NCBI GenBank assembly: GCA_965203375.1
Contig: OZ241886.1
Coordinates: 2,431,249-2,495,248, forward strand
Reading direction: 5' to 3'
DNA length: 64,000 nucleotides
DNA from: Candidatus Aldehydirespiratoraceae bacterium
GTDB taxonomy: Bacteria > Actinomycetota > Acidimicrobiia > Acidimicrobiales > Aldehydirespiratoraceae
This document shows positions 9,163 to 64,000 of the stretch, in pieces. Numbering within the stretch: the stretch's first letter is position 1; each line of letters starts with the position of its first letter. The notes beneath the pieces are model-generated. The model saw nothing but the letters and a program-made list of their open reading frames with translations, was not told where the DNA came from and did not search any database. A program made the position numbers and the translations under genes.

Positions 9163-9894
9163 TCAGCCGGACTCGGCGTCGTCGCCCTCGGTGTCGACAT
9201 CGGCGGCGTCGTCGCCCTCGGTGTCGACATCGGCGGCGTCGTCGCCCTCGGTGTCGACATCGGCGGCGTCGTCGCCCTCGGTGTCGACATCGGCGGCGTC
9301 GTCGCCCTCGGTGTCGACATCGGCGGCGTCGTCGCCCTCGGTGTCGACATCGGCGGCGTCGTCGCCCTCGGTGTCGACATCGGCGGCGTCGTCGCCCTCG
9401 GTGTCGACATCGGCGGCGTCGTCGCCCTCGGTGTCGACATCGGCGGCGTCGTCGCCCTCGGTGTCGACATCGGCGGCGTCGTCGCCCTCGGTGTCGACAT
9501 CGGCGGCGTCGTCGCCCTCGGTGTCGACATCGGCGGCGTCGTCGGACGAGGAGTCAGCGTCGGCGGCTTCGTCCGTGTCGGTTGAGCCGGCGGCTTCACC
9601 TGCGTCGTCGGCGTCGTCGGCGTCGTCGGTCCGGTCGACCGCCCGGCGCACGACATCGGGGACCCGGCCGCCGGTGAGGTCGTCGATCTTGTCGACCACG
9701 GCCTCGGCCACATCGCCGGCCTTGTGGGCGGCCTTGCCCGCCACATCGCCGGCCTTGTCCCAGACATCACCGGCCACGTCGCCGGCCTTGCCGACCAGGT
9801 CCCCCGCCTTGTCGCGAGCCTTGCTGGCCAGATCGCCCATCACGCCTTTGGCCTTGTCGGCAAAATCCTTGTCGTCCATGTCGTCCTCTCCCAT
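9163..9894 (-). CDS. acidic repeat protein: N-terminal KAGD-repeat (CsbD/LEA-like) region + (DDAADVDTEG)x12 C-terminus
   Basis: ATG at 9894 preceded by GGAGAG RBS; N-term DKAKGVMGDLASKARDKAGDLVGKAGDVAGD...; plus-strand ORFs over the same DNA are mirror frames. Confidence 0.65.
   Translation of the reverse strand: MGEDDMDDKDFADKAKGVMGDLASKARDKAGDLVGKAGDVAGDVWDKAGDVAGKAAHKAGDVAEAVVDKIDDLTGGRVPDVVRRAVDRTDDADDADDAGEAAGSTDTDEAADADSSSDDAADVDTEGDDAADVDTEGDDAADVDTEGDDAADVDTEGDDAADVDTEGDDAADVDTEGDDAADVDTEGDDAADVDTEGDDAADVDTEGDDAADVDTEGDDAADVDTEGDDAADVDTEGDDAESG
9184..9543. repeat. perfect tandem repeat, 30 bp x 12 (coding, in-frame)
   Basis: gccctcggtgtcgacatcggcggcgtcgtc repeated 12 times with no mismatches. 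Confidence 0.95.
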
Positions 9895-17037: not shown

Positions 17038-17052
17038 TGATCTCCTACCTCA

Positions 17053-19500
17053 CTAGCCGCCAGTGGGGTTGAGTTCGCTGCGCCATATTTGTCCTTGATT
17101 GGTGAACTGTCCGGTGCTGATGCTGGCGATATCATAGTCGGGCAGTTCGATCTCCCCTACGCATCTTTGGCCGTCGATGGATCCGTATTCGGTGAAGGCG
17201 AAGTCGAAATTGTCGAATCCGGATTGTCGGCGATGGTCGGGCAGGTTCATTCTGTCAACTGGGAATATATGCACGAAGAAGTCGTCGCTGATATCACCGT
17301 TGTGGCATTGCTCTCGAATGTACATCAAGGTTCTATCGCTGGTGAGATAGACATCAAAGGGGCCGCGAACAGCCTCGATCCGTGAGAGACTGATGACTTG
17401 ATCCGCCCGTTGGTGCAACTCGGCATTGGCTACATGGTCGGGCCCGAAGAATCTCCCACCCCAGATAGGTCCTTCACTGCTGGACTGGCCGGTGCTGATG
17501 CTGGCAATATCATAATCGGGCAGATCAAAAATCACAACATACCGCTCGGCATCCATAATAAGTAGCTCGTGCATAGTGAAACCGTATAATTTGTAATCCT
17601 GACTGGAATCGGAGAGAACATTAGTATCCACAGGATAGACCATCAGATGAACATGATTTGACAGCAATAACGGGTTTATTGTGCAGCGATTTCCGACATA
17701 CAGGAGCTTTCGGTCATCGGTAAGATAGACATCAAAATCACCCCGAACCGCTGGCCCGATTTTTTCGACTATTTTATCTATACGTTCCTCATAAACATGC
17801 CGGTCATACAGGTACATCACCTGATTGTCCGGCGTCAACAAGCCTTGAGCGTCGTTCTGCTTAGGCTGAAGAATGAAATCCACTCTGTACGAACTGATGC
17901 GACAATCACGGCTATCAAATATAAGTCCACTGCCATGCAGATAATAGAACAACCCGCCATACGGCCAGATATAGGGATACCAATCCCAGCCGTGAGGGTC
18001 GTATATAGGGATATCAGGGCGAGTATAGACAAGAATATTCTTTCCATCACTTAACTGTCGGATAGTTTCAACATCATCTACTATCAAACTCTCTATATCA
18101 ATAAAAGCTTTGTCATTAGGACGCTCGATTTCAGCATAGGCTACCTTGTAGCTGGAGGTCACAAACAACACAAATGCACCTACTGCACTTAGCGGTAACA
18201 ACTTTTTACCTTTGCCCGACCATTTATATAATAACGACAGAATCAAGGTATAGAAAACCAAAATTACACCTATATAGTACAAACTCTCAAAAAAGTGCGG
18301 GCCAGTATTGTATCGCATAGGAATCGACCAGCAAAACCCGGAAAGAACCGCGGTCAGAACCAACAGACGATGACGCCTGAGGTGAACCGCCCCGATCACA
18401 CATACCCCGATCATGCTGATTCCCGCCGATGCAGCCCAAGGTATTGTTTTAACCAAGACCGTCCTATCCAAGCTAGACCATGAACCGAACGGCAAGGCAA
18501 AGGGAATCGCCAAGTACGACAATCTCTCCAACTGCGAATAAAGAAAAATATACCACTGCACCTGATATTCGCTGCTCAGCCATCTCCCTATTTCATCCGG
18601 GTTCCCTATGTCTGTTCCGGTGCGTCTCAACGCGGAGTCGATCGATGGCATATCTGATAATGCCAATTGATCGCCCGCCCTAAAGTTGAGGGCATAGTAT
18701 TCATTGGCGATATTGTAAGTTAATATCAATATCCCGAACCCCAGGGTAACAAACCCCAAGGTGAAATAGCGACTAGTCACCGCTCTCGATAAATAGAGTG
18801 ACAATGAGAATCCTTGAATCGTCTTTACCTTCCGAGCTTGGATGATTTCCTTAGTCAAGCCGAGAAGTACGAAAGGCAAGAGCAACGCCAATACATGCCA
18901 ACCCAACAACAAAGCAAGACATGCCTTAACAACCAACTGCCGGAAACGACCATCCTGAACGAAAATCACCATGCCATGAAAGGTGAGCGAAAACCCGAAA
19001 AGGTCGGGCATGATTTCCGGTATCGTCGCGGTAGAATATATCAACACCGTAGAGGATGAGAACCCCAACAAAACTGCCGTCGAAGCAATCCACCGGTTTG
19101 AGATAAGCCGACATAGCGACCAATAGGCCAACACCGCGGTTCCAGCGAAGAACGCCACCATAAGCATTTGAACAGCCGCGACACGAATAGACAAGCCATC
19201 ACCTACAACCAAAGTGATCAACTTCATCAGCATATAGCCACCAGGAGGAAATTTATTGTAGGCCGCATAATCGATACTACCAGATACGTCATAAACCTGA
19301 TTCAGGAACCCCAGGAAATGGTGACTGGGAGAAAGATTGATCGCCGCTGCCATATGTTGATGAGAAAGAAAATAGTTTTCGTTTAGGGTGCCAGTTATCC
19401 TGCCGAATAAAAAAATCGTGGACAACCCGATCAACAACAAGATGAGCGGCAACAACCTCAGCCTCGAAGCCAACCGACCTTGACCTAACGGAGCCACCAA
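17053..19500 (-). CDS. large polytopic membrane protein, paralog B (same architecture as A)
   Basis: TTG start after GGTAGGGGA RBS; same TM and C-terminal motif layout as A, with near-identical nucleotides over the 3'-terminal ~450 bp. Confidence 0.65.
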   Translation of the reverse strand: MVAPLGQGRLASRLRLLPLILLLIGLSTIFLFGRITGTLNENYFLSHQHMAAAINLSPSHHFLGFLNQVYDVSGSIDYAAYNKFPPGGYMLMKLITLVVGDGLSIRVAAVQMLMVAFFAGTAVLAYWSLCRLISNRWIASTAVLLGFSSSTVLIYSTATIPEIMPDLFGFSLTFHGMVIFVQDGRFRQLVVKACLALLLGWHVLALLLPFVLLGLTKEIIQARKVKTIQGFSLSLYLSRAVTSRYFTLGFVTLGFGILILTYNIANEYYALNFRAGDQLALSDMPSIDSALRRTGTDIGNPDEIGRWLSSEYQVQWYIFLYSQLERLSYLAIPFALPFGSWSSLDRTVLVKTIPWAASAGISMIGVCVIGAVHLRRHRLLVLTAVLSGFCWSIPMRYNTGPHFFESLYYIGVILVFYTLILSLLYKWSGKGKKLLPLSAVGAFVLFVTSSYKVAYAEIERPNDKAFIDIESLIVDDVETIRQLSDGKNILVYTRPDIPIYDPHGWDWYPYIWPYGGLFYYLHGSGLIFDSRDCRISSYRVDFILQPKQNDAQGLLTPDNQVMYLYDRHVYEERIDKIVEKIGPAVRGDFDVYLTDDRKLLYVGNRCTINPLLLSNHVHLMVYPVDTNVLSDSSQDYKLYGFTMHELLIMDAERYVVIFDLPDYDIASISTGQSSSEGPIWGGRFFGPDHVANAELHQRADQVISLSRIEAVRGPFDVYLTSDRTLMYIREQCHNGDISDDFFVHIFPVDRMNLPDHRRQSGFDNFDFAFTEYGSIDGQRCVGEIELPDYDIASISTGQFTNQGQIWRSELNPTGG

Positions 19501-19541
19501 TCCCCTACCTCACTGCCTTCCCCATAGGCCAGGTCCGGCTC

Positions 19542-51131: not shown

Positions 51132-52103
51132 ATGAGCACAAATGACATGGGCTTAGACACGGACACATTCGGGCCGGTAGTAGCTGCCGGCTGGCTGGCC
51201 GACAACCTCGACTCGGTGGTGGTCGCCGACGTGCGGTGGTACCTGGACGGCCGCTCGGGCCGGGACGCCTACGACCGGGGCCACCTGCCGGGGGCCCGCT
51301 TCGTGGACCTCGACACCGACCTATCCGGGCGCTCCACAACCGTCGGGGGCCGCCATCCCCTGCCCGACCCCAACCGCTTCGCCGAGGCCATGGGCCGCCT
51401 CGGCATTGGCGACGGCGACCCGGTGGTGGTCTACGACGACGCCGGCGGGGTGATCGCGGGTCGGATGTGGTGGATGCTCGACTCGCTGGGACATCCCGCG
51501 GCGGTGCTCGACGGCGGCATCGGGGCCTGGGCCGGGCCGCTGGAGACGGCCCCGGCCGCCTGGGCGCCGGCTGAGTTCACCCCCCGGCCCTGGCCCGAGA
51601 ACCGCTTCGTCGGCATCGACGAGATGGACCGCCTCCGGGACCGGCCCGGCGCCGTGGTCATCGACGCCCGCTCGCCCGAGCGCTACCGGGGCGACCCCAA
51701 CCCCATCGACCCCCGCTTCGGCCATGTGCCCGGGGCGCTGAACATGCCCGCCACCGCCAACCTGGCCGCCAACGGCAGGCTGCTGCCCGCGACCGAACTG
51801 CGGGCCCGCTACACGGCCATCGGCGCCGCCGAACCGGGCGCAGAAACACCAGGCGCCGAGGCGGAAACATCGGGCGCAGAAACACCGGGCGCAGAATCCC
51901 CCGACCCAGGGGCGTCCAACTCCTCCAACATCATCGCCTACTGCGGCAGCGGCGTGTCGGCCTGCTGCGATCTGCTGGCCCTGCGCCGGGCCGGACTGGG
52001 CAACGGGCGGCTGTTCGTGGGGTCGTGGTCGGCCTGGGGCGCCGATCCCGCCCGGCCCGTCGAAACCAGCCAGCCTGCGGTCGGCGGCAGCCACGGCGGT
52101 TGA
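51132..52103 (+). CDS. two-domain rhodanese sulfurtransferase (3-mercaptopyruvate-ST-like)
   Basis: active-site loop CGSGVSA; low-complexity PGAE insertion. Confidence 0.8.
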   Translation: MSTNDMGLDTDTFGPVVAAGWLADNLDSVVVADVRWYLDGRSGRDAYDRGHLPGARFVDLDTDLSGRSTTVGGRHPLPDPNRFAEAMGRLGIGDGDPVVVYDDAGGVIAGRMWWMLDSLGHPAAVLDGGIGAWAGPLETAPAAWAPAEFTPRPWPENRFVGIDEMDRLRDRPGAVVIDARSPERYRGDPNPIDPRFGHVPGALNMPATANLAANGRLLPATELRARYTAIGAAEPGAETPGAEAETSGAETPGAESPDPGASNSSNIIAYCGSGVSACCDLLALRRAGLGNGRLFVGSWSAWGADPARPVETSQPAVGGSHGG

Positions 52104-52159
52104 TGCCGCCAGCCGCCACCGACACCGGCGCCGACCCGCTGCGCCCAAACCCCGCCTGA
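52103..52159 (+). CDS. leader mini-ORF 1 (18 aa, MPPAATDTGADPLRPNPA), copy of the Ppx N-terminus
   Basis: ATG shares A with rhodanese TGA; its own TGA shares A with the next ATG. Confidence 0.4.
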   Translation: MPPAATDTGADPLRPNPA

Positions 52160-52215
52160 TGCCGCACCCAGCCACCGACACGGGCGCCGACCCGCTGCGC
52201 CCAAACCCCGCCTGA
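52159..52215 (+). CDS. leader mini-ORF 2 (18 aa, MPHPATDTGADPLRPNPA)
   Basis: second 56-bp tandem unit; TGA overlaps Ppx ATG (TGATG). Confidence 0.4.
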   Translation: MPHPATDTGADPLRPNPA

Positions 52216-53966
52216 TGCCGCACCCCGCCACCGACACGGGCGCCGACCCGCTGCGCCCAGACCCCAAACCGCTGGCCGCCATCGACGTGGGCACCAACTC
52301 GGTACACATGGTGGTGGCCCGGCCCGTTCCCGGCGGTCCGCCCGACTTCCTGGCCACAGAACGCATGCCGGTGCGGCTGGGCTCGGGCGGCAACGACATG
52401 AAGCGGCTCCACCCCGACGCCGTCGACCGGGCCGTGGCCGCCCTCGACGAGTGCCGCCGCATCGCCGAGGCCCACCAGGCCGACGTGGTGGCGGTGGCCA
52501 CCAGCGCGGTGCGCGAGGCGGCCAACGCCGCCGACTTCCTGCGCCGGGCCCGCACCGAGGCCGGCGTGGCGGTGGAGGTGGTGTCGGGGGTGGAGGAGGC
52601 CCGCCTGATCCACCTGGGGGCCATGAGCGCGGTGCCCATCGCGGGCCGGCCCCATCTGGTGATCGACATCGGGGGCGGGTCCACCGAGGTGATCGCCGGC
52701 ACCGGCACCGAGCCGGCCCTGGCCCGCAGCCTGAAGCTGGGCCACATCCGCCTCACCGACCGGTTCTTCCCCGGCGGAGTCGTCAAGCCCGGGGCGGTGA
52801 AGTCCTGCCGCCGCCACATCCAGTCCTTCATCGCCCCGTTCCTGCGGGAGATGCCCGAGTTCGAGACGGCGGTGGGCTGCTCGGGCACCATCGAGGCCCT
52901 GGCCCTGATGGGGGCGGCCCGCCGGGGCGCGCCCCTGCGGACGGTGGGCAACGCCGCCCTCGCCCGCGGTGACCTCGACGCGGTGGTGGCCGACCTCGTG
53001 TCCCGTCCCCGCCCGGCCGACCGGGCCGGGGCGCCCGGACTCGACCCGGGCCGGGCCGAGGTGATCGTGGCCGGCGCCGTCCTGCTCCGCCAGATGTTCA
53101 AGGCCCTGGGCATTCGCACCCTAACCGTGTCCACCGGGGCGCTGCGGGAGGGGCTGCTGCTGGACAGGTTTCACCGGAGGGACCGGTCGCCGGCCCGCGG
53201 GCTGCACCACCTCAACGACCTGCGGCGGTCCAGCGTGCTGGCCGTCGCCCGCCGCTACGACCAGGACCTCGCCCACGCCGAGCACTCCACCAACCTGGCC
53301 CTGGAGCTCTTCGACGAGACCCGGCCGATCCACGGGCTGGACGAGGCCGAGCGGGAGGTGCTGGAGGCGGCCGGGCTGCTGCACAACATCGGGCGGTTCG
53401 TGGCCCACGCCGCCCACCACCAGCACTCCTACTACCTGATCCGCCACAGCGAGCAGCTCGCCGGGTTCACCGAGAACGAGCTGGAGCTGATCGCCCAGGT
53501 GGCCCGCTACCACCGCAAGAGCGCCCCCCGCAAGTCCCACCCGAGCTTCGCCGGGCTGGACCGGGCCGATCAGCGGCGGGTCCGGCTGCTGGCCGGGATG
53601 CTGCGGGTGGGGATCGCCCTGGACCGCACCTACCGGCGTGCGGTGCGCCACGTCTCCGCCGACACCGACGACCGGGGCCTGCGGATCGCAGGTCCACACG
53701 ATCGCCGGCACCGACGCCGAGCTGGAGATGTTCACCGCCCGGGACCGCTGCGGCCTGCTGGCCGACGCCCTGGACCGCCCGGTGCGCTTCGAGATAACGC
53801 CATACGGCCTCGGGCAGTCCGGGCAAACCGAAGCCGCCGCGGCGACCGAGACCGCGCCGTCGGCCCTCAGCCGCAGAGCCGGATGACGCCACCGGACCGC
53901 CCCGGCGTGCTTTCCAGGCTGGTTCCAGGCCGGGCGCGATCCCAGCTCAGCCGCAGGGCTGGATGA
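52215..53966 (+). CDS. Ppx/GppA exopolyphosphatase with C-terminal HD domain; probable frameshift near 53687-53692
   Basis: AIDVGTNSVHMVVAR actin-like ATPase fold N-terminus, HD region HN.G..V....HH; after ~53690 the +1 frame (53638..53886) reads protein-like while frame 0 becomes Arg/Pro junk. Confidence 0.75.
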   Translation: MPHPATDTGADPLRPDPKPLAAIDVGTNSVHMVVARPVPGGPPDFLATERMPVRLGSGGNDMKRLHPDAVDRAVAALDECRRIAEAHQADVVAVATSAVREAANAADFLRRARTEAGVAVEVVSGVEEARLIHLGAMSAVPIAGRPHLVIDIGGGSTEVIAGTGTEPALARSLKLGHIRLTDRFFPGGVVKPGAVKSCRRHIQSFIAPFLREMPEFETAVGCSGTIEALALMGAARRGAPLRTVGNAALARGDLDAVVADLVSRPRPADRAGAPGLDPGRAEVIVAGAVLLRQMFKALGIRTLTVSTGALREGLLLDRFHRRDRSPARGLHHLNDLRRSSVLAVARRYDQDLAHAEHSTNLALELFDETRPIHGLDEAEREVLEAAGLLHNIGRFVAHAAHHQHSYYLIRHSEQLAGFTENELELIAQVARYHRKSAPRKSHPSFAGLDRADQRRVRLLAGMLRVGIALDRTYRRAVRHVSADTDDRGLRIAGPHDRRHRRRAGDVHRPGPLRPAGRRPGPPGALRDNAIRPRAVRANRSRRGDRDRAVGPQPQSRMTPPDRPGVLSRLVPGRARSQLSRRAG

Positions 53967-54810
53967 CCGAGCGGCCGAAGTCGGCCAGGGCCTCCTCGGT
54001 GTGGCGGAAATAGCGGAAGGCCGGCGCCAGCAGCCGGTGTACGCCCCACGACTCGGCCTCAGCCACCGCGGCGGACGGGTCGTCGCCCAGCAGCCCGGGA
54101 TGGAACGTGGTCACCTCGATCGATGCGGGGTCCCGGCCGGCCTCGGCCGCCTCGGCCCGGGCCATCTGGGCCAGGGAGGCCACGTCCCCCTCGGCCGGGA
54201 AGAAGCCGTCGCCCACCCGGCCAGCCCGGCGGGCCGAGGCCGGGCTATGGCCGCCGATGTGGACCGGCACCCGGCCCGCGGCCGGCTTGGGGTTGGAGCT
54301 GACCCGCTCGAACGACACGAACTCGCCCTCGAAGGACACGTCGTCCTCGGCCCACACCCGCCGCATCACCTCCAGGTACTCCTCGGTGCGGGCCCCCCGC
54401 CGGGCCCAGGGCACGCCCAGTGCCTCGAACTCCTCCCGCAGCCAGCCCACGCCGATCCCCAGCTCCACCCGTCCCCCCGACATGGAGTCGACGGTGGCCA
54501 CCTCCTTGGCGAAGACGAGGGGGTGGCGCTCGGCCAGCAGCGAGATGCCGGTGGCCAGCCGGATTTCGGAGGTGGCGGCGGCCACGTGGCCCAGCCAGGC
54601 CAGCGGGTCGGGGATGGGGTTGCGGCCCGACCCCGGCATCTTCCCGCTGGGCCCGTAGGGGTACACCGACTCGTACCCCTCGGGGTAGACGACGTGCTCC
54701 ACCGTCCACAGCGACTCGAACCCGGCCGCCTCGGCCGAGGCGGCCAGCTTGACGGCCCCGGGCCCGGAGGCGAAGGGCCCGGTGTTGGCGAACCCGATGC
54801 CGAACTTCAC
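53947..54810 (-). CDS. LLM-class (luciferase-like) F420-dependent oxidoreductase
   Basis: MKFGIGFANTGPFASG...; LLM fold. Confidence 0.8.
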   Translation of the reverse strand: MKFGIGFANTGPFASGPGAVKLAASAEAAGFESLWTVEHVVYPEGYESVYPYGPSGKMPGSGRNPIPDPLAWLGHVAAATSEIRLATGISLLAERHPLVFAKEVATVDSMSGGRVELGIGVGWLREEFEALGVPWARRGARTEEYLEVMRRVWAEDDVSFEGEFVSFERVSSNPKPAAGRVPVHIGGHSPASARRAGRVGDGFFPAEGDVASLAQMARAEAAEAGRDPASIEVTTFHPGLLGDDPSAAVAEAESWGVHRLLAPAFRYFRHTEEALADFGRSVIQPCG

Positions 54811-54863
54811 CGCACCCCCGCTCTATCCAATCGCCGCCAATCCGAGCGGTACCCTAACCAGCC

Positions 54864-54938
54864 GTGACCGGACCCGGCCCCCTCACCGCCTCGACCAACC
54901 ACCCCGGACCAACCTCGATCAAAGACATCGAACCGTGA
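54864..54938 (+). CDS. leader mini-ORF (24 aa, VTGPGPLTAST...) duplicating the aminotransferase start
   Basis: GTG 54864; TGA 54936-54938 overlaps GTG 54935 of the main ORF (GTGA). Confidence 0.35.
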   Translation: MTGPGPLTASTNHPGPTSIKDIEP

Positions 54939-56206
54939 CCGGACCCGGCACCCTCAACCACGTCGACACCGAAGCCGACTCGGCTGCCCTTGACCGCGGA
55001 GACAGCAGGGCCGACCCGACCGCCTTCCACCGCGCCGACGCCGGAGCCGACCCGGTCGCCTTCGATCACGTCGACGTCGGGGGCAAGCGCAGCCCCCACA
55101 ACGCCAAGTGGTCCCAATACGGCCCCGACGTTCTGCCGGCCTGGGTGGCCGAGCACGACTTCCGCCAGCCCGACTCGGTGATAGAGGCCATGCGGGCCAC
55201 GATCGACCGGGGCGAGCTGGGCTATCACCGCCGCGACTCTGAGGTGGCCGAGGCCTTCGGGGGCTGGGCCCGGTCCCGCTACGGCTGGGACCCCGACCCG
55301 GCGCTGGCCGCGGTGTGCGTGGACGCCCTCCAGGGCGTCGTCGCCGCGGTCACCGCACTGGCCGGCCCCGGCGAGGGGGTGATCCTGACGCCGCCCGTCT
55401 ACCACGTGTTCTGGCAGATCTGCCCCACCTCGGGGCGGCGGCCGGTGGAGTGGCCGATGCGGCAAGGCCCCGGCGGATGGCGCCTCGACCCCGACGACCT
55501 CGAAGCGGTGGCCGCGGCCGACCCCGGCGCCAAGGTGCTGTTGCTGTCGCACCCCCAGAACCCCACCGGCCGGGTGGCCGACCGAGACACCCTGGCCCGC
55601 ATCGTCGAGGTGGCCCGCGATCGCGGCCTCTACGTCGTGTCCGACGAGATTCACGGCGACATGGTGTACCCCCCGGCCGAATTCGTGCCCATGCTGTCGC
55701 TGGACGGCGCCGCCGACCGGGTGATAACCGTGACCTCGCCGGCCAAGACCTTCGCCCTGTCGGGGCTGCGCTGCGCCCTAACCGTCTTCGGCTGCCCGGA
55801 GCTGCGCCGCCGGGTGATCGAGGCCCACCCTCCCCTGCTGCTGGGCCACGCCTCCCGGACGGGCATCGACGCCTCGGTGGCGGCCTGGACCGAGGGCGGG
55901 GCCTGGGCCGACCGGCTGCTCGACCAGCTCCGGGCGAACCGCGACCATCTGGCCCGGCGGCTGGCGGCCGAGGCCCCGGCGGTGCGGATGCACCTGCCGG
56001 AGTCGACGTTTCTGGCCTGGCTGGACGTGTCGGCCTGCGGCCTGGGCCACCGGCCCGCCGCCGCCCTGCTGGAGCGGGCCCGGGTGGCGCTGCTGGAGGG
56101 AACCGAGTTCGGGACCGGCGGCGAAGGCTGCGTGCGGCTCAACTTCGGGACGTCTGAGGCGCTGCTAGACGCCATAATAGACCGGCTCATCCCCCATCTG
56201 CGATGA
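54935..56206 (+). CDS. MalY/PatB-family PLP-dependent C-S lyase / aminotransferase
   Basis: FDHVDVGGKRSPHNAKW (PatB-type N-terminus), PLP-lysine context; start uncertain, GTG 54935 is the only nearby candidate. Confidence 0.75.
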   Translation: MTGPGTLNHVDTEADSAALDRGDSRADPTAFHRADAGADPVAFDHVDVGGKRSPHNAKWSQYGPDVLPAWVAEHDFRQPDSVIEAMRATIDRGELGYHRRDSEVAEAFGGWARSRYGWDPDPALAAVCVDALQGVVAAVTALAGPGEGVILTPPVYHVFWQICPTSGRRPVEWPMRQGPGGWRLDPDDLEAVAAADPGAKVLLLSHPQNPTGRVADRDTLARIVEVARDRGLYVVSDEIHGDMVYPPAEFVPMLSLDGAADRVITVTSPAKTFALSGLRCALTVFGCPELRRRVIEAHPPLLLGHASRTGIDASVAAWTEGGAWADRLLDQLRANRDHLARRLAAEAPAVRMHLPESTFLAWLDVSACGLGHRPAAALLERARVALLEGTEFGTGGEGCVRLNFGTSEALLDAIIDRLIPHLR

Positions 56207-58341
56207 CCGACCACCAGGGCCGTAGGTTCGAAATGCTCTTGCAGCGGTGTCCGTGGCTGGCTTGCGCGCTGTTTGTGGGAGTCGCGCTCGTCCATAACGA
56301 TACCCCCACCCCGCAGGATACAGTCTGGACCGCCCAAGCGACGACACCGGCCGAGACGACGGTGCAAGACTCGGCTAGATTATTAGGATCTATTGCCCCA
56401 GTTGAGGACGATCAAGGTTCGGATAAGGGCTCGATAGTTTTGTCATGGCCTAATCTTGGTGATACTTCAATCACTCATTATCAGTATAGATTCAGGAGTG
56501 CATCAAAGGCAGGGTACGGTCCGTGGATAGATGTTCCCTTCAACTATGAGACCACCACTGTAAATACCATCACCAACCTTAAAACGGATATGGCCTATCA
56601 TATACGATATCGAGCCTGCAGGCCGACCAAATGCGGAATTGCGAGAGTTAAATGGCATGTAAGAGCTTGCAACACGGGCGAATGTAAAGCTAAAAAGCTT
56701 CAAATAAGGGTTCCAGTGTTTCCGTCGGATGTTCCCCCTCCACCTGGTTTCTGGTTCTTAGACGATGACGGCAGTATCCACGAGGGCGCCATTGAGGCAC
56801 TCGCGGCCGTGGGCGTCGCCCGAGGGTGCCGATACGACCTCTATTGCCCCGATGAGGAGGTGACCCGCGGCCAGTTCGCCGCGCTATTGGCGCGGGCCTT
56901 TCCCGGCTTGGTCCCCGACGACGCCGACGACTTCTTCGGCGACGACGACGGCAGCGTCCACGAGGCCGCCGTCAACGGCCTCGCCGCTGCGGGGATCGCG
57001 AGCGGCTGCGGGCCGGGCCGTTACTGCCCCGCCGAACCGATGACCCGAGCCCAGATGGCGACACTGCTGGCCCGGGCCCTCCCCGGTTTGGCTTCCCCCG
57101 ACCGGGATCATTTCTCCGATGACGACGGGACCGTCCATGAGGTCGCCATCAACGCGTTGGCCGAAAACGGCATCGTCTCCGGCTGCGGACCGGGCCGGTA
57201 CTGCCCCGACGATCCGATGCGGCGCGATCAGGCGGCGACGCTGCTGGCCCGGGCACTGGACCTGAAGCCGACCCAGCCTGAGCCGAGCCCGTGGCGGCTC
57301 GAGCCGGTGGCCGACGGCATCGACGGCGGCCCCACCGACCTCCAAGCCCCAGACGGCGACGACCGCTTGTTCCTGGCAACCAAACAGGGGGCGATCCTCA
57401 TAATCGCCGACGGCGCCCTATTGACCGAACCGTTTCTTGACTTGACCAGCGAAGTCATGTCCGCGGGCGGCGAACAAGGTCTGCTCGGGATGGCATTCCA
57501 CCCCCACTACGACACCAGCTTCAGGTTCTATGTCTTTTATACCGACTTAGACGGCCATAGCCAAATATATGAGTACCGGACCGACCCCGAGAACCCGAAC
57601 CAGGCCGACGCTTCCACCGCCCGTCACATCATCACCATCGAACAGACCAACGCTATACATATGGGCGGACAGCTTCAATTCGGCGCTGACGGCTACCTAT
57701 ACATAGCCGTCGGTGACGACCTGCTCTCTAACAACGGACAGAACCCCAGAACAGCGCCGGGAACCATCCTCCGCATAGATATAGACGACGTCGACTCCTA
57801 CTCGATTCCTGCCGACAACCCCTTCGCCGACGGCCAAGAAGGTCTACCCGAAGTCTGGGCCTACGGGCTGCGTAACCCCTGGCGATTCAGCTTCGACGGC
57901 TCCAACATCTACATCGCTGATGTAGGGCATAATGAACGAGAGGAAATCAACATCGTCGACACCTCAAGGGGTGGAATAAACTACGGCTGGCCCATCGTGG
58001 GTGATACCCAATGCATCAACTCAAACTCGAACTGCGCCGGACTGTTCACCCCTCAAATCGAATACTACCGCAACGATGGGTTTGCCGTCATCGGCGGCTA
58101 CGTATATCGAGGCACCGCCATAGGTGAGATGACCGGCCGATACTTCTACTCCGACATCAGCGGCCGATGGATCCGCACCTTCGCCTACCAAGACGGCGAG
58201 ATCACCGAGCACTATGACTGGTCCCAGGCGATCGAAGATCTCGGGCAGGTGTGGTCATTCGGCAAAGACGGCCACGGAGAGCTCTACGTGCTGACCAGCG
58301 ACGCCGTCTACAAGATCGCCCCCGCTAGCCTCAACCCATGA
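56203..58341 (+). CDS. surface protein paralog 1: TM/signal + FN3 + 3 SLH-like repeats + PQQ-type soluble sugar dehydrogenase beta-propeller
   Basis: ATG overlaps aminotransferase stop (ATGA); SLH-like FSDDDGS.HE.AI..LA..GI..GC....YCP....TR.Q.A.LLARA x3; propeller motifs GLLGMAFHP, GGQLQFGADGYLY, GLRNPWRFSFD, GGINYGWP. Confidence 0.75.
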   Translation: MTDHQGRRFEMLLQRCPWLACALFVGVALVHNDTPTPQDTVWTAQATTPAETTVQDSARLLGSIAPVEDDQGSDKGSIVLSWPNLGDTSITHYQYRFRSASKAGYGPWIDVPFNYETTTVNTITNLKTDMAYHIRYRACRPTKCGIARVKWHVRACNTGECKAKKLQIRVPVFPSDVPPPPGFWFLDDDGSIHEGAIEALAAVGVARGCRYDLYCPDEEVTRGQFAALLARAFPGLVPDDADDFFGDDDGSVHEAAVNGLAAAGIASGCGPGRYCPAEPMTRAQMATLLARALPGLASPDRDHFSDDDGTVHEVAINALAENGIVSGCGPGRYCPDDPMRRDQAATLLARALDLKPTQPEPSPWRLEPVADGIDGGPTDLQAPDGDDRLFLATKQGAILIIADGALLTEPFLDLTSEVMSAGGEQGLLGMAFHPHYDTSFRFYVFYTDLDGHSQIYEYRTDPENPNQADASTARHIITIEQTNAIHMGGQLQFGADGYLYIAVGDDLLSNNGQNPRTAPGTILRIDIDDVDSYSIPADNPFADGQEGLPEVWAYGLRNPWRFSFDGSNIYIADVGHNEREEINIVDTSRGGINYGWPIVGDTQCINSNSNCAGLFTPQIEYYRNDGFAVIGGYVYRGTAIGEMTGRYFYSDISGRWIRTFAYQDGEITEHYDWSQAIEDLGQVWSFGKDGHGELYVLTSDAVYKIAPASLNP

Positions 58342-60719
58342 CCTCCGATCGAACAGCCCACCCGTCTTGCACGCGCGTTGAAATCATGTGCATCGTTATC
58401 TGCTTCTTGATCTGTGCGCTAGTCGCCGGACTGTTACCACAAATGGTAATTCCCCGTACGGCTCATGCTCAGGCCGCGAACAATGCGGCGGTTCCAGGGG
58501 AACCGTGTGGGTTGTCGGCTGTGGGTAGGAACGGCTCGGGTTCTGGCGATGGTTCAATTGTCCTGTCATGGGATGATCCCGGCGACTCTTCAATCAATGG
58601 TTATCAGTACCGGCTGAGGACCCCTGATACGTCTGAAGAATACGGCTCGTGGATCGACATCCCTGGCAGCGGAGCCTCCACCACCGGCCACACCATCACC
58701 GGCCTTAACAACCACACGCGCTATAATGTGCGGCTGCGGGCTGGCAACACAGCCGGGTGGGGGGCCAGTCGGGTCTATTTTAGTGCTCGGACGACCACGG
58801 TTCCTGCCACCACTGCGACATATGTTCCAAGCCGGCCGGTCCTATTGGCCTCGTCTTTCTACGACGGCACCATTACCATTGCCTGGGATTGCCCGCGGAC
58901 GCAAGACCAAGTCCTCTGGTACCAATACCGATACAAGATCGGGCCCGGCATGTGGTCAGACTGGATTACATTGCCACCGACGGACCGCAGCCTTACCCTG
59001 GCCGTCCTGGACCGTGACACTCGGCACTACGTGGTTCTGCGAGCCGTCAACAGCGCGGGCTTCGGCAGCAGCATCTTAGCCTTTCCCCGGGTTCCCCCTC
59101 CACCTGGTTTTTGGTTCTCAGACGACGATGGGAGCATCCACGAGGGCGCTATTGAGGCCGTCGCCGCCGCGGGCGTCGCCCCGGGTTGCCAGCACAACCT
59201 CTATTGCCCTGCCGATTCGATGACCAGGGCCCAGTTCGCTTCCCTCTTGGTACGAGCCTTCCCCGATCTGATCCCCGAAGACGCCGAAAACTATTTCAGC
59301 GACGACGACGGGACCGTTGACGAGAGTGCCATCAACCGGCTGGCCGCCGCGGGGATAACCGCGGGCTGTGGGCCCCGGCGGTATTGCCCCGACGATTCGA
59401 TGACCCGGGCCCAGGCGGCGACGCTGCTGGCCCGGGCCCTCTCCGGCCTGGCTCCGCCCGACCGGGATCATTTCTCCGACGACGACGGGACCGTCCATGA
59501 GATCGCCATCAACGCGTTGGCCGAAAACGGCATCGTCTCCGACTGCGGGGCGGGCCGGTACTGCCCCGACGATCCGATGCGGCGCGACCAAGCGGCGACA
59601 CTGCTGGCCCGGGCCCTCAACCTGGAGCCGACCCAGCCGGCACCGAGCCCCTGGCAACTCGAGTCGGTGGCCGACGGCATCGACGGCGGCCCCACCGACC
59701 TTCAGGCCCCAGCCAGCGACGACCGCTTGTTCCTGGCAACCAAACAGGGGGCGATCCGCATAATCGCCGACGGCGCCTTATTGCTCGAACCGCTCCTCGA
59801 TTTGACCGGCAAAGTCAATTCCGAGACCGTCGAAGAAGGCCTGCTCGGGCTGGCCTTCCACCCCCACTACGCCACCAACCACAAGTTCTATGTCTTTTAT
59901 ACCGACTTAGACGGTCACAATCAGGTCTACGAGTACAGGACCGACCCCTCCGACCCCAACCGGGCCGACTCCTCCACCGCCCGCCACATCATCACCTTCA
60001 CCCAGGAATGCCTCTGGCACAATGGCGGACAGCTCCAATTCGGTGCCGACGGCTACCTATACATAGCCGTCGGCGACGGAGCATGCTTCAATCTTGGCAA
60101 CAAGCCAGAAACTTTGGACCAAACCCCCCACAACATCCTAGGGACCATCGTTCGCATAGATGTAGACAATGGTGACCCCTACTCGATTCCTGCCGATAAC
60201 CCCTTCGCCGACGGCCAAGATGGCCTGCCAGAAGTGTGGGCCTACGGACTGCGCAACCCCTGGAGATTCAGCTTCGACGGCCCCAACATTTACATCGCTG
60301 ATGTAGGGCACCACGAACGGGAGGAGATCAACATCGCCGACGTCTCAAGGGGCGGAATAAACTACGGCTGGCCCATCGTGGGTGATACCCAATGCATCAA
60401 CTCGAACTCGAACTGCGCCGGACTGTTCACCCCTCAAATCGAATACTATCGCAACGATGGGTTCGTCGTCATCGGCGGCTACGTATATCGAGGAACTGCC
60501 ATAGGTGAGATGGTCGGCCGATACTTCTACGCCGACTACACCGGATGGATACGCACCTTCGCCTACCAAGACGGCGAGATCACCGAGCACTATGACTGGT
60601 CCCAGGCGATCGAAGATCTCGGGCAGGTGTGGTCATTCGGCAAAGACGGCCACGGGGAGCTCTACGTGCTGACCAGCGACGCCGTCTACAAGATCGCCCC
60701 CACTAGCCTCAACCCATGA
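58338..60719 (+). CDS. surface protein paralog 2: signal peptide + 2 FN3 + 3 SLH-like + PQQ-type dehydrogenase propeller
   Basis: ATGA overlap with paralog 1 stop; signal peptide ending AHAQA; same domain order. Confidence 0.75.
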   Translation: MTSDRTAHPSCTRVEIMCIVICFLICALVAGLLPQMVIPRTAHAQAANNAAVPGEPCGLSAVGRNGSGSGDGSIVLSWDDPGDSSINGYQYRLRTPDTSEEYGSWIDIPGSGASTTGHTITGLNNHTRYNVRLRAGNTAGWGASRVYFSARTTTVPATTATYVPSRPVLLASSFYDGTITIAWDCPRTQDQVLWYQYRYKIGPGMWSDWITLPPTDRSLTLAVLDRDTRHYVVLRAVNSAGFGSSILAFPRVPPPPGFWFSDDDGSIHEGAIEAVAAAGVAPGCQHNLYCPADSMTRAQFASLLVRAFPDLIPEDAENYFSDDDGTVDESAINRLAAAGITAGCGPRRYCPDDSMTRAQAATLLARALSGLAPPDRDHFSDDDGTVHEIAINALAENGIVSDCGAGRYCPDDPMRRDQAATLLARALNLEPTQPAPSPWQLESVADGIDGGPTDLQAPASDDRLFLATKQGAIRIIADGALLLEPLLDLTGKVNSETVEEGLLGLAFHPHYATNHKFYVFYTDLDGHNQVYEYRTDPSDPNRADSSTARHIITFTQECLWHNGGQLQFGADGYLYIAVGDGACFNLGNKPETLDQTPHNILGTIVRIDVDNGDPYSIPADNPFADGQDGLPEVWAYGLRNPWRFSFDGPNIYIADVGHHEREEINIADVSRGGINYGWPIVGDTQCINSNSNCAGLFTPQIEYYRNDGFVVIGGYVYRGTAIGEMVGRYFYADYTGWIRTFAYQDGEITEHYDWSQAIEDLGQVWSFGKDGHGELYVLTSDAVYKIAPTSLNP

Positions 60720-60751
60720 CCTCCGATCAACCTGCTCATCCCCCACCTGCA

Positions 60752-62868
60752 ATGACCGACCACCAGAGCCGTAAATTCAAAATGCTCTTGCTGAGATGTC
60801 CGTGGCTGACTTGCGCACTGTTTGCGGGAATCGCGTTCGTCCATAACAATACCCCCCCCCGCAGGATGCGGTCCAGACCGCTCAAGCGGCGACACCGTCC
60901 AAGACGATGACACAAGATTCGGCTAAATTAGTGGGATCAGTTGCCTCAGTTGAGGATGATCAAGGTTCGAATAAGGGCTCGATAGTTTTGTCATGGTCTA
61001 ATCCTGGTAATCCTTCAATCACTCATTATCAGTATCAATTCAGAAGTGCATCAGAGGTAGGATACGGTCCGTGGATTGATATTCCTGACAGCAGAGCGTC
61101 CACTACTGAATATACCATCACCGGCCTTAGAACCAATGCAATATATAATGTAAGACTTAGAGCCTGTAAGAGATCTGTATGTTGGGATTTCAGTAGTTTA
61201 TGGCATGTAAGAGTCTGTGAAATGACCGAATCGACCAAATGTGAAGTTACTGCGATAGGCTACCCAGTGATCGCGCCAACTGTTCCCCCTCCACCTGGTT
61301 TCTGGTTCTCAGACGATGACGGCAGCCGCCATGAGGGGGCCATTGAAGCTCTCGCGGCCGCGAGAATCGCATCTGGGTGCGGACGGCACCTTTATTGCCC
61401 CGCTGAGGAGACGACCCGGGGCCAGTTCGCCTCGCTGTTGGCGCGGGCCTTCCCCGACTTGGTCCCCGACTACACCGGAGACTTCTTCGGCGACGACAAC
61501 GGCAGCGTCCACGAGGCCGACATCAACAGGCTGGCCGCAGTGGAGATCGCGGCCGGCTGCGGGCCGAGCCGGTTCTGCCCCGACGACCCGATACGGCGCG
61601 ACCAAGCGGCGACGCTGCTGGCCCGGGCCCTCCCCGGCCTGGCTCCGCCCGAACGGGATCACTTCTCCGACGACGACGGCAGCATCCACGAGATCGCCGT
61701 CAACGCCATGGCCGAAAACGGCATCCTCGCCGGCTGCGGGCCGAGCCGGTTCTGCCCCGACGACCCGATACGGCGCGACCAGGCCGCGACCCTGCTCGCC
61801 CGGGTCCTCAACCTGAATCGGGCCGAACCTCAACTAAGCCTGTGGCGGCTCGAGCTAGTGGCCGACGGGATTGTCGGCGGCGTCACCGACCTGCAGGCCC
61901 CCATCGGCGACGACCGGGCATTTCTGGCCACCAGACGAGGGATGATCCGTGTGATGGCCGACGGCGCCCTTTTACCCGGGCCATTCCTCGACTTGACCAG
62001 TAAAATCTCAGGGGGCCTGTTCGGGCTGGCCTTCCACCCCCGCTACGACACCAACGGCAAGTTCTACGTCTTCTATATTGCCTTAGACGGCAACATCCGA
62101 ATATACGAGTACCGGGCCGACTCCGAGAACCCCAACCGGGCCGATCCTTCGACCGCCCGCCACATCGTCACCATAGAGCGAGACACAAGTACTCACCACG
62201 GAGGGCAGCTCCAATTCGGTCCTGATGGCTACCTATACATCGGCATCGGTGACAACAACAACCCCGAAAGCAGTCAGAATTTGCAAACCGCGCATGGGAC
62301 CATCCTCCGCATAGATGTAGACAACGGTGAACCCTACTCCATCCCTGCCGATAACCCCTTCGCCGACGGCCAAGATGGCCTACCTGAAGTGTGGGCCTAC
62401 GGGCTGCGCCATCCTTGGCGATTCAGCTTCGACGGCCCCAATATCTACATCGCCGACGTGGGAGATGTCCACATTGAGGAGATCAACATCGCCAAGGCTT
62501 CCCAGGGTGGAATAAACTACGGCTCGCCGGTCATGGACGGCTCCATATGCGTCAGTCCAACCTCAAACTGCGCCGGGCTGTTCACTCCTCAAATCGAATA
62601 CTACCATGCCCAGGGTTTTGCCGTCATCGGCGGCTACGTATACCGAGGCACTGCCTTACCTGAAATGGTCGGCCGATACTTCTACTCCGACTACACCGGC
62701 GCATGGATCCGCACATTCCTCTACAACGACGACGGCGAGGTGACAGAGCACTACGACTGGTCCTCAGCAGTCGAAAACGTCGCGCAGATGCAGTCATTCG
62801 GCAAAGACGGCCACGGAGAGCTCTACGTGCTGACCGGCTACGCCGTCTACAAGATCGTCCCCCGCTAG
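60752..62868 (+). pseudogene. surface protein paralog 3, interrupted by a frameshift at a C9 homopolymer (60852-60860)
   Basis: N-terminal TM segment (60752-60860) and body (ATG 60907 onward) lie in different frames; a C10 tract would restore a full-length reading frame homologous to paralog 1. Confidence 0.6.
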
Positions 62869-62877
62869 CCTCAGCCC

Positions 62878-64000
62878 ATGATCTCCGATCGCCAGGCCCA
62901 CCCGTCCTGCAATCGCCTTCAAATGGGTCGGGGCATAGAAATCCCGGCCGGTTCGGCCAGCATTAGGTCCTGGCCAGCCTCTGGTATTGTCAAGATAGCC
63001 CACGGTGCATGCGATGATCGGGAACGGCGCAAGACCCATATGCCTCGTTTGACTACTTTACTGGTCTGTGCGCTGATCGCTGGACTATTGTCACAAGTGA
63101 CAACTCCCGTAGTAGTCCATGCTCAGGCGGCGAGCAATGCGGCGATTCCAAGAGAACCGTGCATGGTGTCTGCAACCACTGAAGACGTAGTTTCACGGCC
63201 AAGACGACCGGTCCTATTGGCCTCGTCTTTCTACAGCGGCACCATTACTGTCGCATGGGACTGCCCGCGGGCGCAAGACCAAGTCCTCTGGTACCAATAC
63301 CGCTACAAGATCGGGCCTGGCATGTCGTCAGGCTGGATTAAATTGCCACCGACGGCTCGTAGCCTGACCCTGACCGTCCTGGACCGTGACACCCGGCACT
63401 ACGTGGTTCTGCGAGCCGTCAACAGCGCGGGTCCAGGCAACAGTGTCTTAGCCTACCCCCGGGTTCCCCCTCCACCTGGTTTCTGGTTCTCCGACGACGG
63501 CGGGAGCGTCTACGAGGGCGCTATTGAGGCCGTCGCCGCCGCGGGCATCGCCCCCGGGTGCCGACACAACCTCTATTGCCCCGCCGATCCGATGACCAGA
63601 GGCCAGTTCGCTTCCCTCCTGGTACGAGCCTTCCCCGACCTGATCCCCGACGACGCCGAAAACTACTTCTCCGACGACAACGGGACCGTCCACGAGATCG
63701 CCATCAACCGGCTGGCCTCCGCGGGTATAACCGCGGGCTGCAAGCCGGGCCGGTACTGCCCCGCCGATCCGATGCGGCGCGACCAAGCGGCGACGCTGCT
63801 GGCCCGGGCCCTCCCCGGCCTGATTCCGCCCAACGGGGATCATTTCTCCGACGACGACGGGACCGTCCACGAGATCGCCATCAACGTGTTGGCTGAAAAC
63901 GGCATCGTCTCCGGCTGCGGGCCGGGCCGGTACTGCCCCGCCGATCCGATGCGGCGCGATCAGGCGGCGGCGCTGCTGGCCCGGGCCCTCAACCTGGAGA
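62878..64000 (+). CDS. surface protein paralog 4 (paralog-2-like, one FN3), 3'-partial at window edge
   Basis: no stop in frame from 62878 to the window end; alternative start ATG 63040 (MPRLTTLLVCALIAGLL...AQAA signal peptide). Confidence 0.6.
   Translation, partial: MISDRQAHPSCNRLQMGRGIEIPAGSASIRSWPASGIVKIAHGACDDRERRKTHMPRLTTLLVCALIAGLLSQVTTPVVVHAQAASNAAIPREPCMVSATTEDVVSRPRRPVLLASSFYSGTITVAWDCPRAQDQVLWYQYRYKIGPGMSSGWIKLPPTARSLTLTVLDRDTRHYVVLRAVNSAGPGNSVLAYPRVPPPPGFWFSDDGGSVYEGAIEAVAAAGIAPGCRHNLYCPADPMTRGQFASLLVRAFPDLIPDDAENYFSDDNGTVHEIAINRLASAGITAGCKPGRYCPADPMRRDQAATLLARALPGLIPPNGDHFSDDDGTVHEIAINVLAENGIVSGCGPGRYCPADPMRRDQAAALLARALNLE

Follow-up and report, generated by a model that had tools for sequence, protein, structure and literature searches.

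What makes a single domain AT-rich inside genes of a genome whose GC content is 73%? The question is raised by 64,000 nucleotides of contig OZ241886.1 from a Candidatus Aldehydirespiratoraceae bacterium, referred to below as the window, meaning the whole of that stretch. Toward its right-hand end, immediately 3' of a core aminotransferase gene, lies a head-to-tail array of at least four paralogous genes, p1 through p4, with a common layout: a leader, a fibronectin type III (FN3) domain, a PPPP linker, three SLH repeats (PF00395), and a propeller resembling pyrroloquinoline quinone (PQQ) dehydrogenases (PF07995). In p1 and p3, designated A-type, the FN3 region is AT-rich; p2 and p4 are designated B-type. 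A first-pass annotation of this DNA took the AT-rich region for a module of foreign origin, grafted in frame onto resident genes. In the analysis reported here, which covers the 64-kb window and a few short related contigs, the compositional outlier, its sharp boundaries and the addition of an FN3 domain are all borne out, and the reading as a foreign graft is supported only in part. The explanation we favor, as probably though by no means securely correct, is that the ancestor of this clade gained the FN3 domain a single time, that it evolves fast, and that its low GC is a steady state specific to the module, which escapes the force that raises GC across the genome.

The first-pass figure of about 45% GC agrees with measurement: GC is 0.440 for positions 56380-56720 and 0.423 for 60940-61270. 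Background windows of 340 bp have a mean GC of 0.715, with a standard deviation of 0.041 and a minimum of 0.529, which gives the two stretches z values of -6.8 and -7.2, respectively. A maximum-likelihood fit of two breakpoints delimits the p1 patch at 56376-56777, with GC of 0.453 between flanks of 0.68 and 0.72, and the p3 patch at 60901-61257, with GC of 0.415 between flanks of 0.60 and 0.69. GC at third codon positions (GC3) is 0.41 in the FN3 stretch of p1 and 0.34 in that of p3, compared to 0.84-0.98 in nearby core genes, and GC at four-fold-degenerate sites is 0.41 and 0.38. The codon adaptation index, calculated domain by domain with the core genes of the window as reference, is 0.16 for the p1 FN3 and 0.13 for the p3 FN3, compared to 0.58-0.81 for core genes. 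The codons AGA, TTA, ATA, AAA and AAT, near-absent from core genes, are enriched 15- to 50-fold in the FN3 stretches, and the nucleotide string quoted in the first-pass annotation was located in p1. Amino-acid content as the cause of the low GC is ruled out by the low GC3, by the low GC at four-fold sites, and by the GC-rich coding of related FN3 repeats described below.

Several details of the first-pass description had to be revised. The two stretches had been called nearly identical; they share 75-78% identity over 500-600 nt, a figure that rises to 82-86% for the FN3 core and drops to about 53% for the cysteine-rich tail. The SLH and propeller parts, and the FN3 region of p2, had been placed at the high GC of the genome. 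The SLH parts, at 0.68-0.70 (GC3 0.81-0.84), come nearest to genome-level GC yet remain somewhat lower, the propeller reaches only 0.59 (GC3 0.74-0.76), and the two FN3 domains of p2 have values of 0.595 and 0.607. Nor are the genes that carry the patches ordinary residents, as the whole array is atypical for the genome, with GC of 0.59-0.61, GC3 of about 0.70 (0.69-0.74), and a codon adaptation index of 0.43-0.55. Even the codons of invariant FN3 residues have a GC3 of 0.46, compared to 0.73-0.79 for variable residues of the SLH and propeller parts, a comparison of sequences that are not independent and whose p-values are therefore optimistic. Because invariant FN3 residues use AT-ending codons, the cause must act on the module as a whole rather than site by site, and site-wise selection for codon accuracy is ruled out as the sole cause.

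The direction in which the module changes was read from third-position singletons, polarised among p1, p3 and the homologous loci L070 and L073, and counted per ancestral state, with S for G/C sites and W for A/T sites. In the FN3 region, 20 of 37 S sites changed to W (0.54) and 15 of 63 W sites changed to S (0.24), for an implied GC3 of 0.31 where 0.34-0.41 is observed. The SLH repeats show S-to-W changes at 28 of 149 sites and W-to-S changes at 12 of 19 (implied GC3 0.77, observed 0.82-0.86), and the propeller shows 63 of 252 and 28 of 49 (implied 0.70, observed 0.74-0.84). A control made of three flanking core genes across three strains gave 14 of 1161 and 17 of 88, implying a GC3 of 0.94 where 0.93 is observed. 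Each of the two rates sets FN3 apart from the remainder of the gene (Fisher p ~1e-4), and strictly synonymous four-fold sites follow the same trend, with small counts. Core genes fix W-to-S changes about 16 times more readily per site than S-to-W changes; in FN3 the ratio is reversed. Parsimony overcounts changes from common to rare states, which makes the FN3 contrast conservative. The FN3 region is at a compositional steady state of its own and is not drifting toward the composition of its host. For the FN3 core and tail, the ratio of nonsynonymous to synonymous divergence (dN/dS) comes to 0.7-1.1, versus 0.3-0.6 for the SLH repeats and propeller.

The composition is also conserved. A conspecific strain from a different sample and assembly, L068, is 98.9% identical over window positions 53946-64000 and carries both AT-rich FN3 modules as intact reading frames, and the flanking LLM-type oxidoreductase protein is unchanged on its contig. 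The window is about 98% identical to part of a circular metagenomic contig of 3.66 Mb, L067. A full-length p1 query finds A-type relatives that have both the FN3 domain and its cysteine tail (P0281, P0282, P0284, P0289 and P0294), at 59-77% identity. In L070, L073, L071 and L072, GC is 0.46-0.53 in FN3 (GC3 0.40-0.55), 0.70-0.72 in the SLH repeats (GC3 0.82-0.86), and 0.59-0.64 in the propeller (GC3 0.77-0.84). L073 is the positional orthologue of p1, adjoining the aminotransferase gene, and has high-GC flanks; those of L072 have GC of 0.69-0.74.

Farther out, orthologues consisting of a signal peptide, three SLH repeats and a GSDH (PQQ-dependent sugar dehydrogenase-like) propeller are widespread in Acidimicrobiia. 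The outgroup orthologues closest to the array share about 60% identity with it over the SLH-propeller part and come from metagenome-assembled genomes (MAGs) of sponge-associated Acidimicrobiia; they have only a signal peptide before the three SLH repeats and propeller, and their composition is flat. A p1-type FN3 is encoded in none of 60 related genome loci. Since the outgroup orthologues lack the FN3 domain, it was gained in the ancestor of this clade. When p1 is compared to p3, the leader has a synonymous divergence (dS) of 0.18, the FN3 core one of 0.23-0.25 and SLH1-2 one of about 0.3, and this similarity across the junction of AT-rich FN3 and GC-rich SLH means that the junction predates the duplication that produced p1 and p3.

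If the FN3 domain had come from a low-GC organism and been fused in frame, its AT-richness would be donor composition that has yet to fade, an account that we consider unlikely. It would explain an extreme outlier in composition and codon usage with sharp boundaries, and a domain that neither the outgroup orthologues nor any of the 60 related loci have. Atypical composition and codon usage, as expected of recently acquired foreign DNA, are indeed found. The patch is not missing from close relatives, however, since it occurs in L068 and is kept in homologues down to 59% identity, and is absent only from the outgroup orthologues at about 60%. No relatives from a low-GC donor lineage appear, and substitutions do not run toward the host composition: FN3 lacks the excess of W-to-S changes that fading would bring, with 0.24 per W site versus 0.57-0.63 elsewhere in the same genes and an equilibrium of 0.31 that approximates the observed value. 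The patch thus fails three of five tests of recent foreign origin, those of distribution, donor and direction of substitution. The window contains no tRNA gene, and mobility signatures were not seen at the patch borders, which lie inside the reading frame, after the leader and at the PPPP linker.

HMMER searches of 1.84 billion representative proteins found only repeats within giant multi-FN3 proteins, at 30-42% identity, with best single repeats at 48-58%. Four contigs bearing such related FN3 repeats were examined and have GC of 59-72%, with GC3 of 0.67-0.88 in the genes concerned; as these repeats are encoded in GC-rich DNA, AT-rich coding is no requirement of this type of FN3 domain. Scans of metagenome DNA, run with FN3 patterns and with the full-length alignment, returned nothing useful, and no FN3 relatives were found among viral contigs, plasmids and phages. 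A word-indexed protein search with the FN3 module alone gave no matches, which the shortened public gene calls described below explain. The search for nearest relatives that the first-pass annotation had proposed as a check thus yields no low-GC relative among protein, metagenome, viral, plasmid or phage sequences, and the best overall match to the A-type FN3 is FN3a of p2, at 59% identity over 73 residues. No search found a low-GC donor, with the qualification that protein databases under-sample such modules and are partly blind to such segments, so that a donor could be missed. With no donor found, an old and conserved junction, and a composition at steady state, low GC is here poor evidence of foreign origin.

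Elsewhere in the genes, sequence is exchanged between paralogs. From SLH3 to the C-terminus p1 and p2 are near-identical, with dS of 0.12-0.19 in SLH3 and the propeller C-terminus, and the C-terminal part of the p1 propeller is 95-99% identical to that of p2; such near-identity indicates gene conversion. One conversion tract differs between strains: a 350-nt tract of p1, 57900-58250, is 97.4% identical to p2 without gaps in L068 and 92.5% identical with three gaps in the window, which accounts for 17 clustered strain differences and a 3-nt indel at 58163-58165. Between A-type and B-type genes the FN3 domains and leaders, with dS of about 1.9-2.9 (about 1.9 for the FN3 domains), are evidently not exchanged. 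GC3 is 0.75-0.93 in converted segments (SLH3, the propeller C-terminus and the first propeller segment, prop_a), 0.67-0.69 in the least converted propeller segment, and 0.34-0.64 in unconverted FN3 domains, a series from one locus in which the measure of divergence is confounded by composition. A diversity-generating retroelement was considered as well: the window holds no template repeat, the only other copies being the paralogs, and the differences between p1 and p3 affect all four bases about equally, with no adenine pattern, which rules it out.

The explanation we favor, a steady state specific to the module, builds on the composition and its conservation, the age of the junction, the asymmetry of substitution, and the gene conversion elsewhere in these genes. 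In outline, an FN3 domain would have been inserted between the signal peptide and the SLH repeats in the ancestor of the clade. The force that keeps genome GC high, either selection for GC-ending codons or GC-biased repair during recombination and conversion, would fail to act on that domain, which is weakly constrained and too diverged for conversion between paralogs and may be switched off part of the time. Silent-site changes in FN3 run toward A/T, with an implied equilibrium GC3 of about 0.3, and the module would sit near an AT-biased mutational equilibrium. In bacteria, mutation is known to be AT-biased, with selection or GC-biased conversion pushing the other way (Hershberg and Petrov 2010, PMC2936535; Hildebrand et al. 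2010, PMC2936529).

Several points weigh against this explanation. The polarised third-position changes in FN3 number only 35, and those at strictly synonymous four-fold sites only 6. Polarisation by parsimony is biased, which makes the contrast approximate though conservative in the known direction, and the core-gene control compares strains while the array comparison is between paralogs and species. The FN3 tail has a dS of 0.94-1.19 between p1 and p3, compared to 0.25 in the core, and the p1 tail is nearer to that of L070 (dS 0.34); this suggests that the tail was replaced from another AT-rich copy, and part of what was counted as substitution may have been imported from AT-rich FN3 copies outside the sample. 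With only moderate divergence in the clade (dS 0.3-1.2), the time elapsed leaves room for composition to be returning very slowly to that of the host. Where the FN3 domain first came from did not emerge from the searches, in databases that under-sample FN3 modules after gene callers have cut them off. Finally, the cause of the substitution asymmetry is inferred, not demonstrated.

The AT-richness could itself be selected. A long run of rare codons behind the signal anchor might slow translation and so help membrane targeting or folding, or the AT-rich DNA might be bound by a silencing nucleoid protein that regulates a gene required only at times. The patch begins some 25-28 codons past the hydrophobic leader, codons rare in the genome are enriched in it 15- to 50-fold, B-type genes and the outgroup orthologues also dip mildly in GC3 near their 5' ends, and a stationary low GC3 is what selection would be expected to produce. 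We nevertheless regard selection on composition as improbable. The B-type paralogs have the same architecture and no comparable dip, and silent sites show no unusual conservation, with a dS in the FN3 core (0.23-0.25) close to that of its flanks. Promoter-like sites number one where 2.5 are expected, and Rfam finds no RNA family match in 55500-64000. At about 120 codons, the patch is also far longer than known translation ramps.

The segment replacement indicated by the tail divergence, with the p1 tail nearer to L070 than to p3, would also fit a pool of interchangeable AT-rich FN3 cassettes, in the genome or in the population, kept AT-rich by gene conversion. Conversion is clearly active in the array, and the array extends past the end of the window. 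Just two A-type copies are visible in the window, however, and why the pool itself should be AT-rich stays unexplained, so that the question is only moved. A cassette pool is compatible with a module-specific steady state and does not exclude it; as the explanation in its own right we rate it very improbable. An artefact, by chimeric assembly or a poor-quality insert, has practically negligible probability: odd composition and a p3 homopolymer that could be a sequencing error are all that would suggest it, two diverged copies each keep an open frame through both of the boundaries, and the same patches in the independent assemblies L068, L070, L073, L071 and L072, from other samples, rule it out.

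The domains of the array are ordinary members of the FN3, SLH and GSDH families. Scores for SLH (PF00395) in p1-p3 are 39.3-53.5 bits, against a gathering cut-off of 20.8, and those for GSDH (PF07995) are 124-142 bits, against a cut-off of 25, over model positions 9-326 of 332; the propellers are taken to be PQQ-dehydrogenase-like and six-bladed. The Pfam fn3 model (PF00041, cut-off 25) scores 36.3 bits for p3 (E = 6.5e-9) and 50.8 bits for FN3a of p2, while the p1 module has no Pfam fn3 match at E <= 0.01. A phmmer search with p1 nonetheless matched 1511 FN3-repeat proteins, and those looked up carry Pfam fn3. An AlphaFold2 model of the p1 module (predicted local distance difference test score 75.5, predicted template modelling score 0.68) has six assigned strands, and nearly all of the top 50 Foldseek matches in the Protein Data Bank are FN3 domains, with probability of about 1.00, E of about 5e-3, and template modelling scores of 0.4-0.65. 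On this predicted structure the p1 module is FN3 by fold, counting it as the seven-stranded beta-sandwich.

A conserved pattern of four cysteines, RAC-x4-C-x(9-12)-C-x(4-7)-C, closes the A-type FN3 domains, at 56560-56730 and 61120-61281. It sits where the usual last strand region would be, is common to P0281, P0282, P0284 and P0289, and is the fastest-diverging part, with a nonsynonymous divergence (dN) of 0.4-0.9. The four cysteines may form disulfide bonds within a variable loop.

The leader of p3, which starts at an ATG at 60752, is put out of frame by a run of nine C residues, C9, and a single added C would yield a full-length p1-like protein. The equivalent tract in L068 is C10 and in frame, that of L070 is C10 in frame, and that of L073 is C10 out of frame. 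Here, then, is a homopolymer of at least 8 nt in the 5' coding region whose length differs between strains with a change of frame, as in phase-variable genes. The poly-C tract looks like an on/off switch operated by slipped-strand mispairing, and C9 in p3 could also be a homopolymer sequencing error. In p1 the leader contains an interrupted C-run, CCCCCACCCC (C5-A-C4), at 56303-56312. A separate difference between L068 and the window, at 56396-56422, pairs a 1-nt deletion with a 1-nt insertion 26 nt away; it changes PVEDDQGSD to QLRTIKVRN, nine residues that lie just before the p1 FN3 core, and the gene stays open.

Public gene calls begin p1 and p3 past the AT-rich part, at 541 (P0280) and 548 amino acids (P0296), and those of L068 are 540 and 533 amino acids, compared to full lengths of about 712 and 705. 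The spans of open reading frame at stake are 56203-56742 and 60752-61290 of the window. As a result of these shortened calls, signal peptide and FN3 domain are missing from protein databases, and for the same reason the protein search with FN3 alone came back empty.

Coordinates of the array and its parts are collected in Table 1. The array proteins are probably secreted and anchored to the cell wall, with the p1 leader as a predicted signal peptide or signal anchor. A-type and B-type genes differ in their leaders as well as in their FN3 domains. The ATG that opens p1 and the stop codon of the aminotransferase gene upstream overlap. A short motif, GCTCATCCC(C/T)CA, occurs at all gene junctions in the array, at 56185-56206, 58338-58375, 60716-60755 and 62869-62920, and the aminotransferase gene upstream has it as its 3' end. 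At the p2-p3 junction a p2-type start is fused to a p1-type start. This arrangement suggests that a two-gene unit, one A-type and one B-type, was duplicated by recombination at junction microhomology.

Table 1. Positions in the window, with supporting evidence and composition, of the paralog array, its domains and the gene at its left edge
Feature	Position	Strand	Evidence and composition
Class I/II aminotransferase, core gene, left edge of array	54749..56206	+	Pfam; GC 0.73, GC3 0.90; 423 amino acids in public calls
p1, A-type, 712 amino acids: leader, AT-rich FN3, three SLH, GSDH propeller	56203..58341	+	Open reading frame; Pfam GSDH E = 3.7e-41, SLH E = 9.3e-14
p1 leader: basic N-terminus, then hydrophobic segment	56203..56373	+	Translation; GC 0.64, GC3 0.77
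p1 AT-rich FN3 module, residues 58-176, including four-Cys tail	56374..56730	+	GC 0.45, GC3 0.40
p1 PPPP linker and three SLH repeats	56731..57282	+	Pfam SLH; GC 0.70, GC3 0.82-0.83
p1 GSDH (PQQ-dependent sugar dehydrogenase-like) beta-propeller	57283..58338	+	PF07995 at residues 385-701; GC 0.59, GC3 0.74
p2, B-type, 793 amino acids: distinct leader, FN3a, FN3b, three SLH, propeller	58338..60719	+	Open reading frame, Pfam
p2 FN3a	58500-58805	+	GC 0.595, GC3 0.64
p2 FN3b	58806-59090	+	GC 0.607, GC3 0.74
p3 leader frame, homologous to p1 leader, out of frame with rest of p3	60752..60906	+	
p3 C9 homopolymer between leader and FN3	60852..60860	+	
p3, A-type, 653 amino acids as read in window: AT-rich FN3, three SLH, propeller	60907..62868	+	Open reading frame; Pfam fn3 E = 6.5e-9
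p3 AT-rich FN3 module	60913..61281	+	GC 0.43, GC3 0.34
p4, B-type, single FN3b-like domain, runs off window end	63040..64000	+	Full public protein P0288, 640 amino acids called

Other features of the window lie outside the array. A second low-GC island, at 14629-19509 on the minus strand, consists of two tandem paralogs of about 800 amino acids each, multi-pass membrane proteins about 85% identical to one another. Its GC is 0.48-0.50 and its GC3 about 0.55, its flanks are high in GC, and it is also present in L067. The island genes have no Pfam match, and polarised changes in the island, 4 versus 5, are too few to judge stationarity. A perfect tandem repeat at 9174-9544, with 12.4 copies of a 30-nt unit at 100% match, sits between genes for a DUF3516 helicase and a DUF2339 membrane protein, and is repeated in L067 too. 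Two imperfect repeats are found at the starts of reading frames: 2.9 copies of a 56-nt unit at 52101-52265, in a Ppx/GppA frame, and 3.9 copies of a 36-nt unit at 54942-55080, in the aminotransferase frame, where strain differences cluster.

The amelioration model for transferred DNA of atypical composition is reportedly that of Lawrence and Ochman, from 1997. The FN3 patches resemble such DNA in being sharply bounded, atypical for the host in composition and codon usage, and absent from distant orthologues. They differ in that each is a single domain within an open reading frame, its composition is conserved and stationary at low GC, and it has no donor-like relatives. GC-biased gene conversion is said to have been described in bacteria by Lassalle and colleagues in 2015. 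Core genes here, with substitution running GC-ward, accord with the framework of AT-biased mutation, and the implied FN3 GC3 of about 0.3 resembles a mutational equilibrium. The studies behind that framework compare genomes or genes, whereas here three equilibria stand side by side within single genes. To our knowledge, several compositional equilibria in one gene, arranged along domain borders, are not commonly described, and our literature searches found no such case.

Phase-variable surface genes with poly-G or poly-C tracts are known from Neisseria, Campylobacter and Haemophilus, and a comparable tract from glpK in Mycobacterium tuberculosis. The array shares with them a 5' coding tract of C9 or C10, a one-base difference between strains, a tandem family of surface proteins, variable N-termini, and gene conversion. 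It differs in belonging to an uncultured Acidimicrobiia bacterium and in a tract that lies about 50-60 nt upstream of an AT-rich patch rather than at its edge. The nearest known protein families are SLH-anchored surface proteins and soluble PQQ-dependent aldose or sorbosone dehydrogenases, and all paralogs pass both Pfam gathering thresholds; unlike those, the members of this clade add one or two N-terminal FN3 domains, one type with four cysteines, and have tandem arrays and a three-tier composition. Proteins with "eukaryote-like" FN3 and PQQ domains are enriched in sponge microbiomes (PMC9531527). Both domain types are present here, and the nearest relatives of the SLH-propeller part are from MAGs of sponge-associated Acidimicrobiia; a sponge-associated origin of the organism itself is what we infer from its nearest genome matches only. 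The sponge reports treat the enrichment of domain classes, not composition within genes.

Atypical composition is routinely taken as evidence of horizontal transfer, and here a patch with such composition fails the other tests of foreignness. A more specific proposal, possible but doubtful, is that the FN3 patch is a read-out, within a gene, of the neutral mutational equilibrium (GC3 about 0.3), as a fast-evolving and perhaps phase-variable surface module, out of reach of conversion by its paralogs, escapes what keeps the remaining genome at a GC3 of about 0.93, each gene having three equilibria that line up with its domain borders and with the reach of conversion. If true, it would show with unusual directness what keeps GC high in bacteria, and domain-sized AT-rich patches in high-GC genomes would be systematically mistaken for transferred DNA and trimmed away in gene calling. 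Should the module be escaping GC-biased conversion or codon selection, the locus would directly estimate how far this genome is raised above its mutational equilibrium, and such an estimate would bear on a long-running debate in bacterial genome evolution. For the protein family, the consequence is that protein databases largely lack the A-type FN3 variant and give these surface proteins a wrong domain architecture. Taken together, the array resembles a variable surface-protein system: its N-terminal modules vary, gene conversion is ongoing, and one tract may act as an on/off switch.

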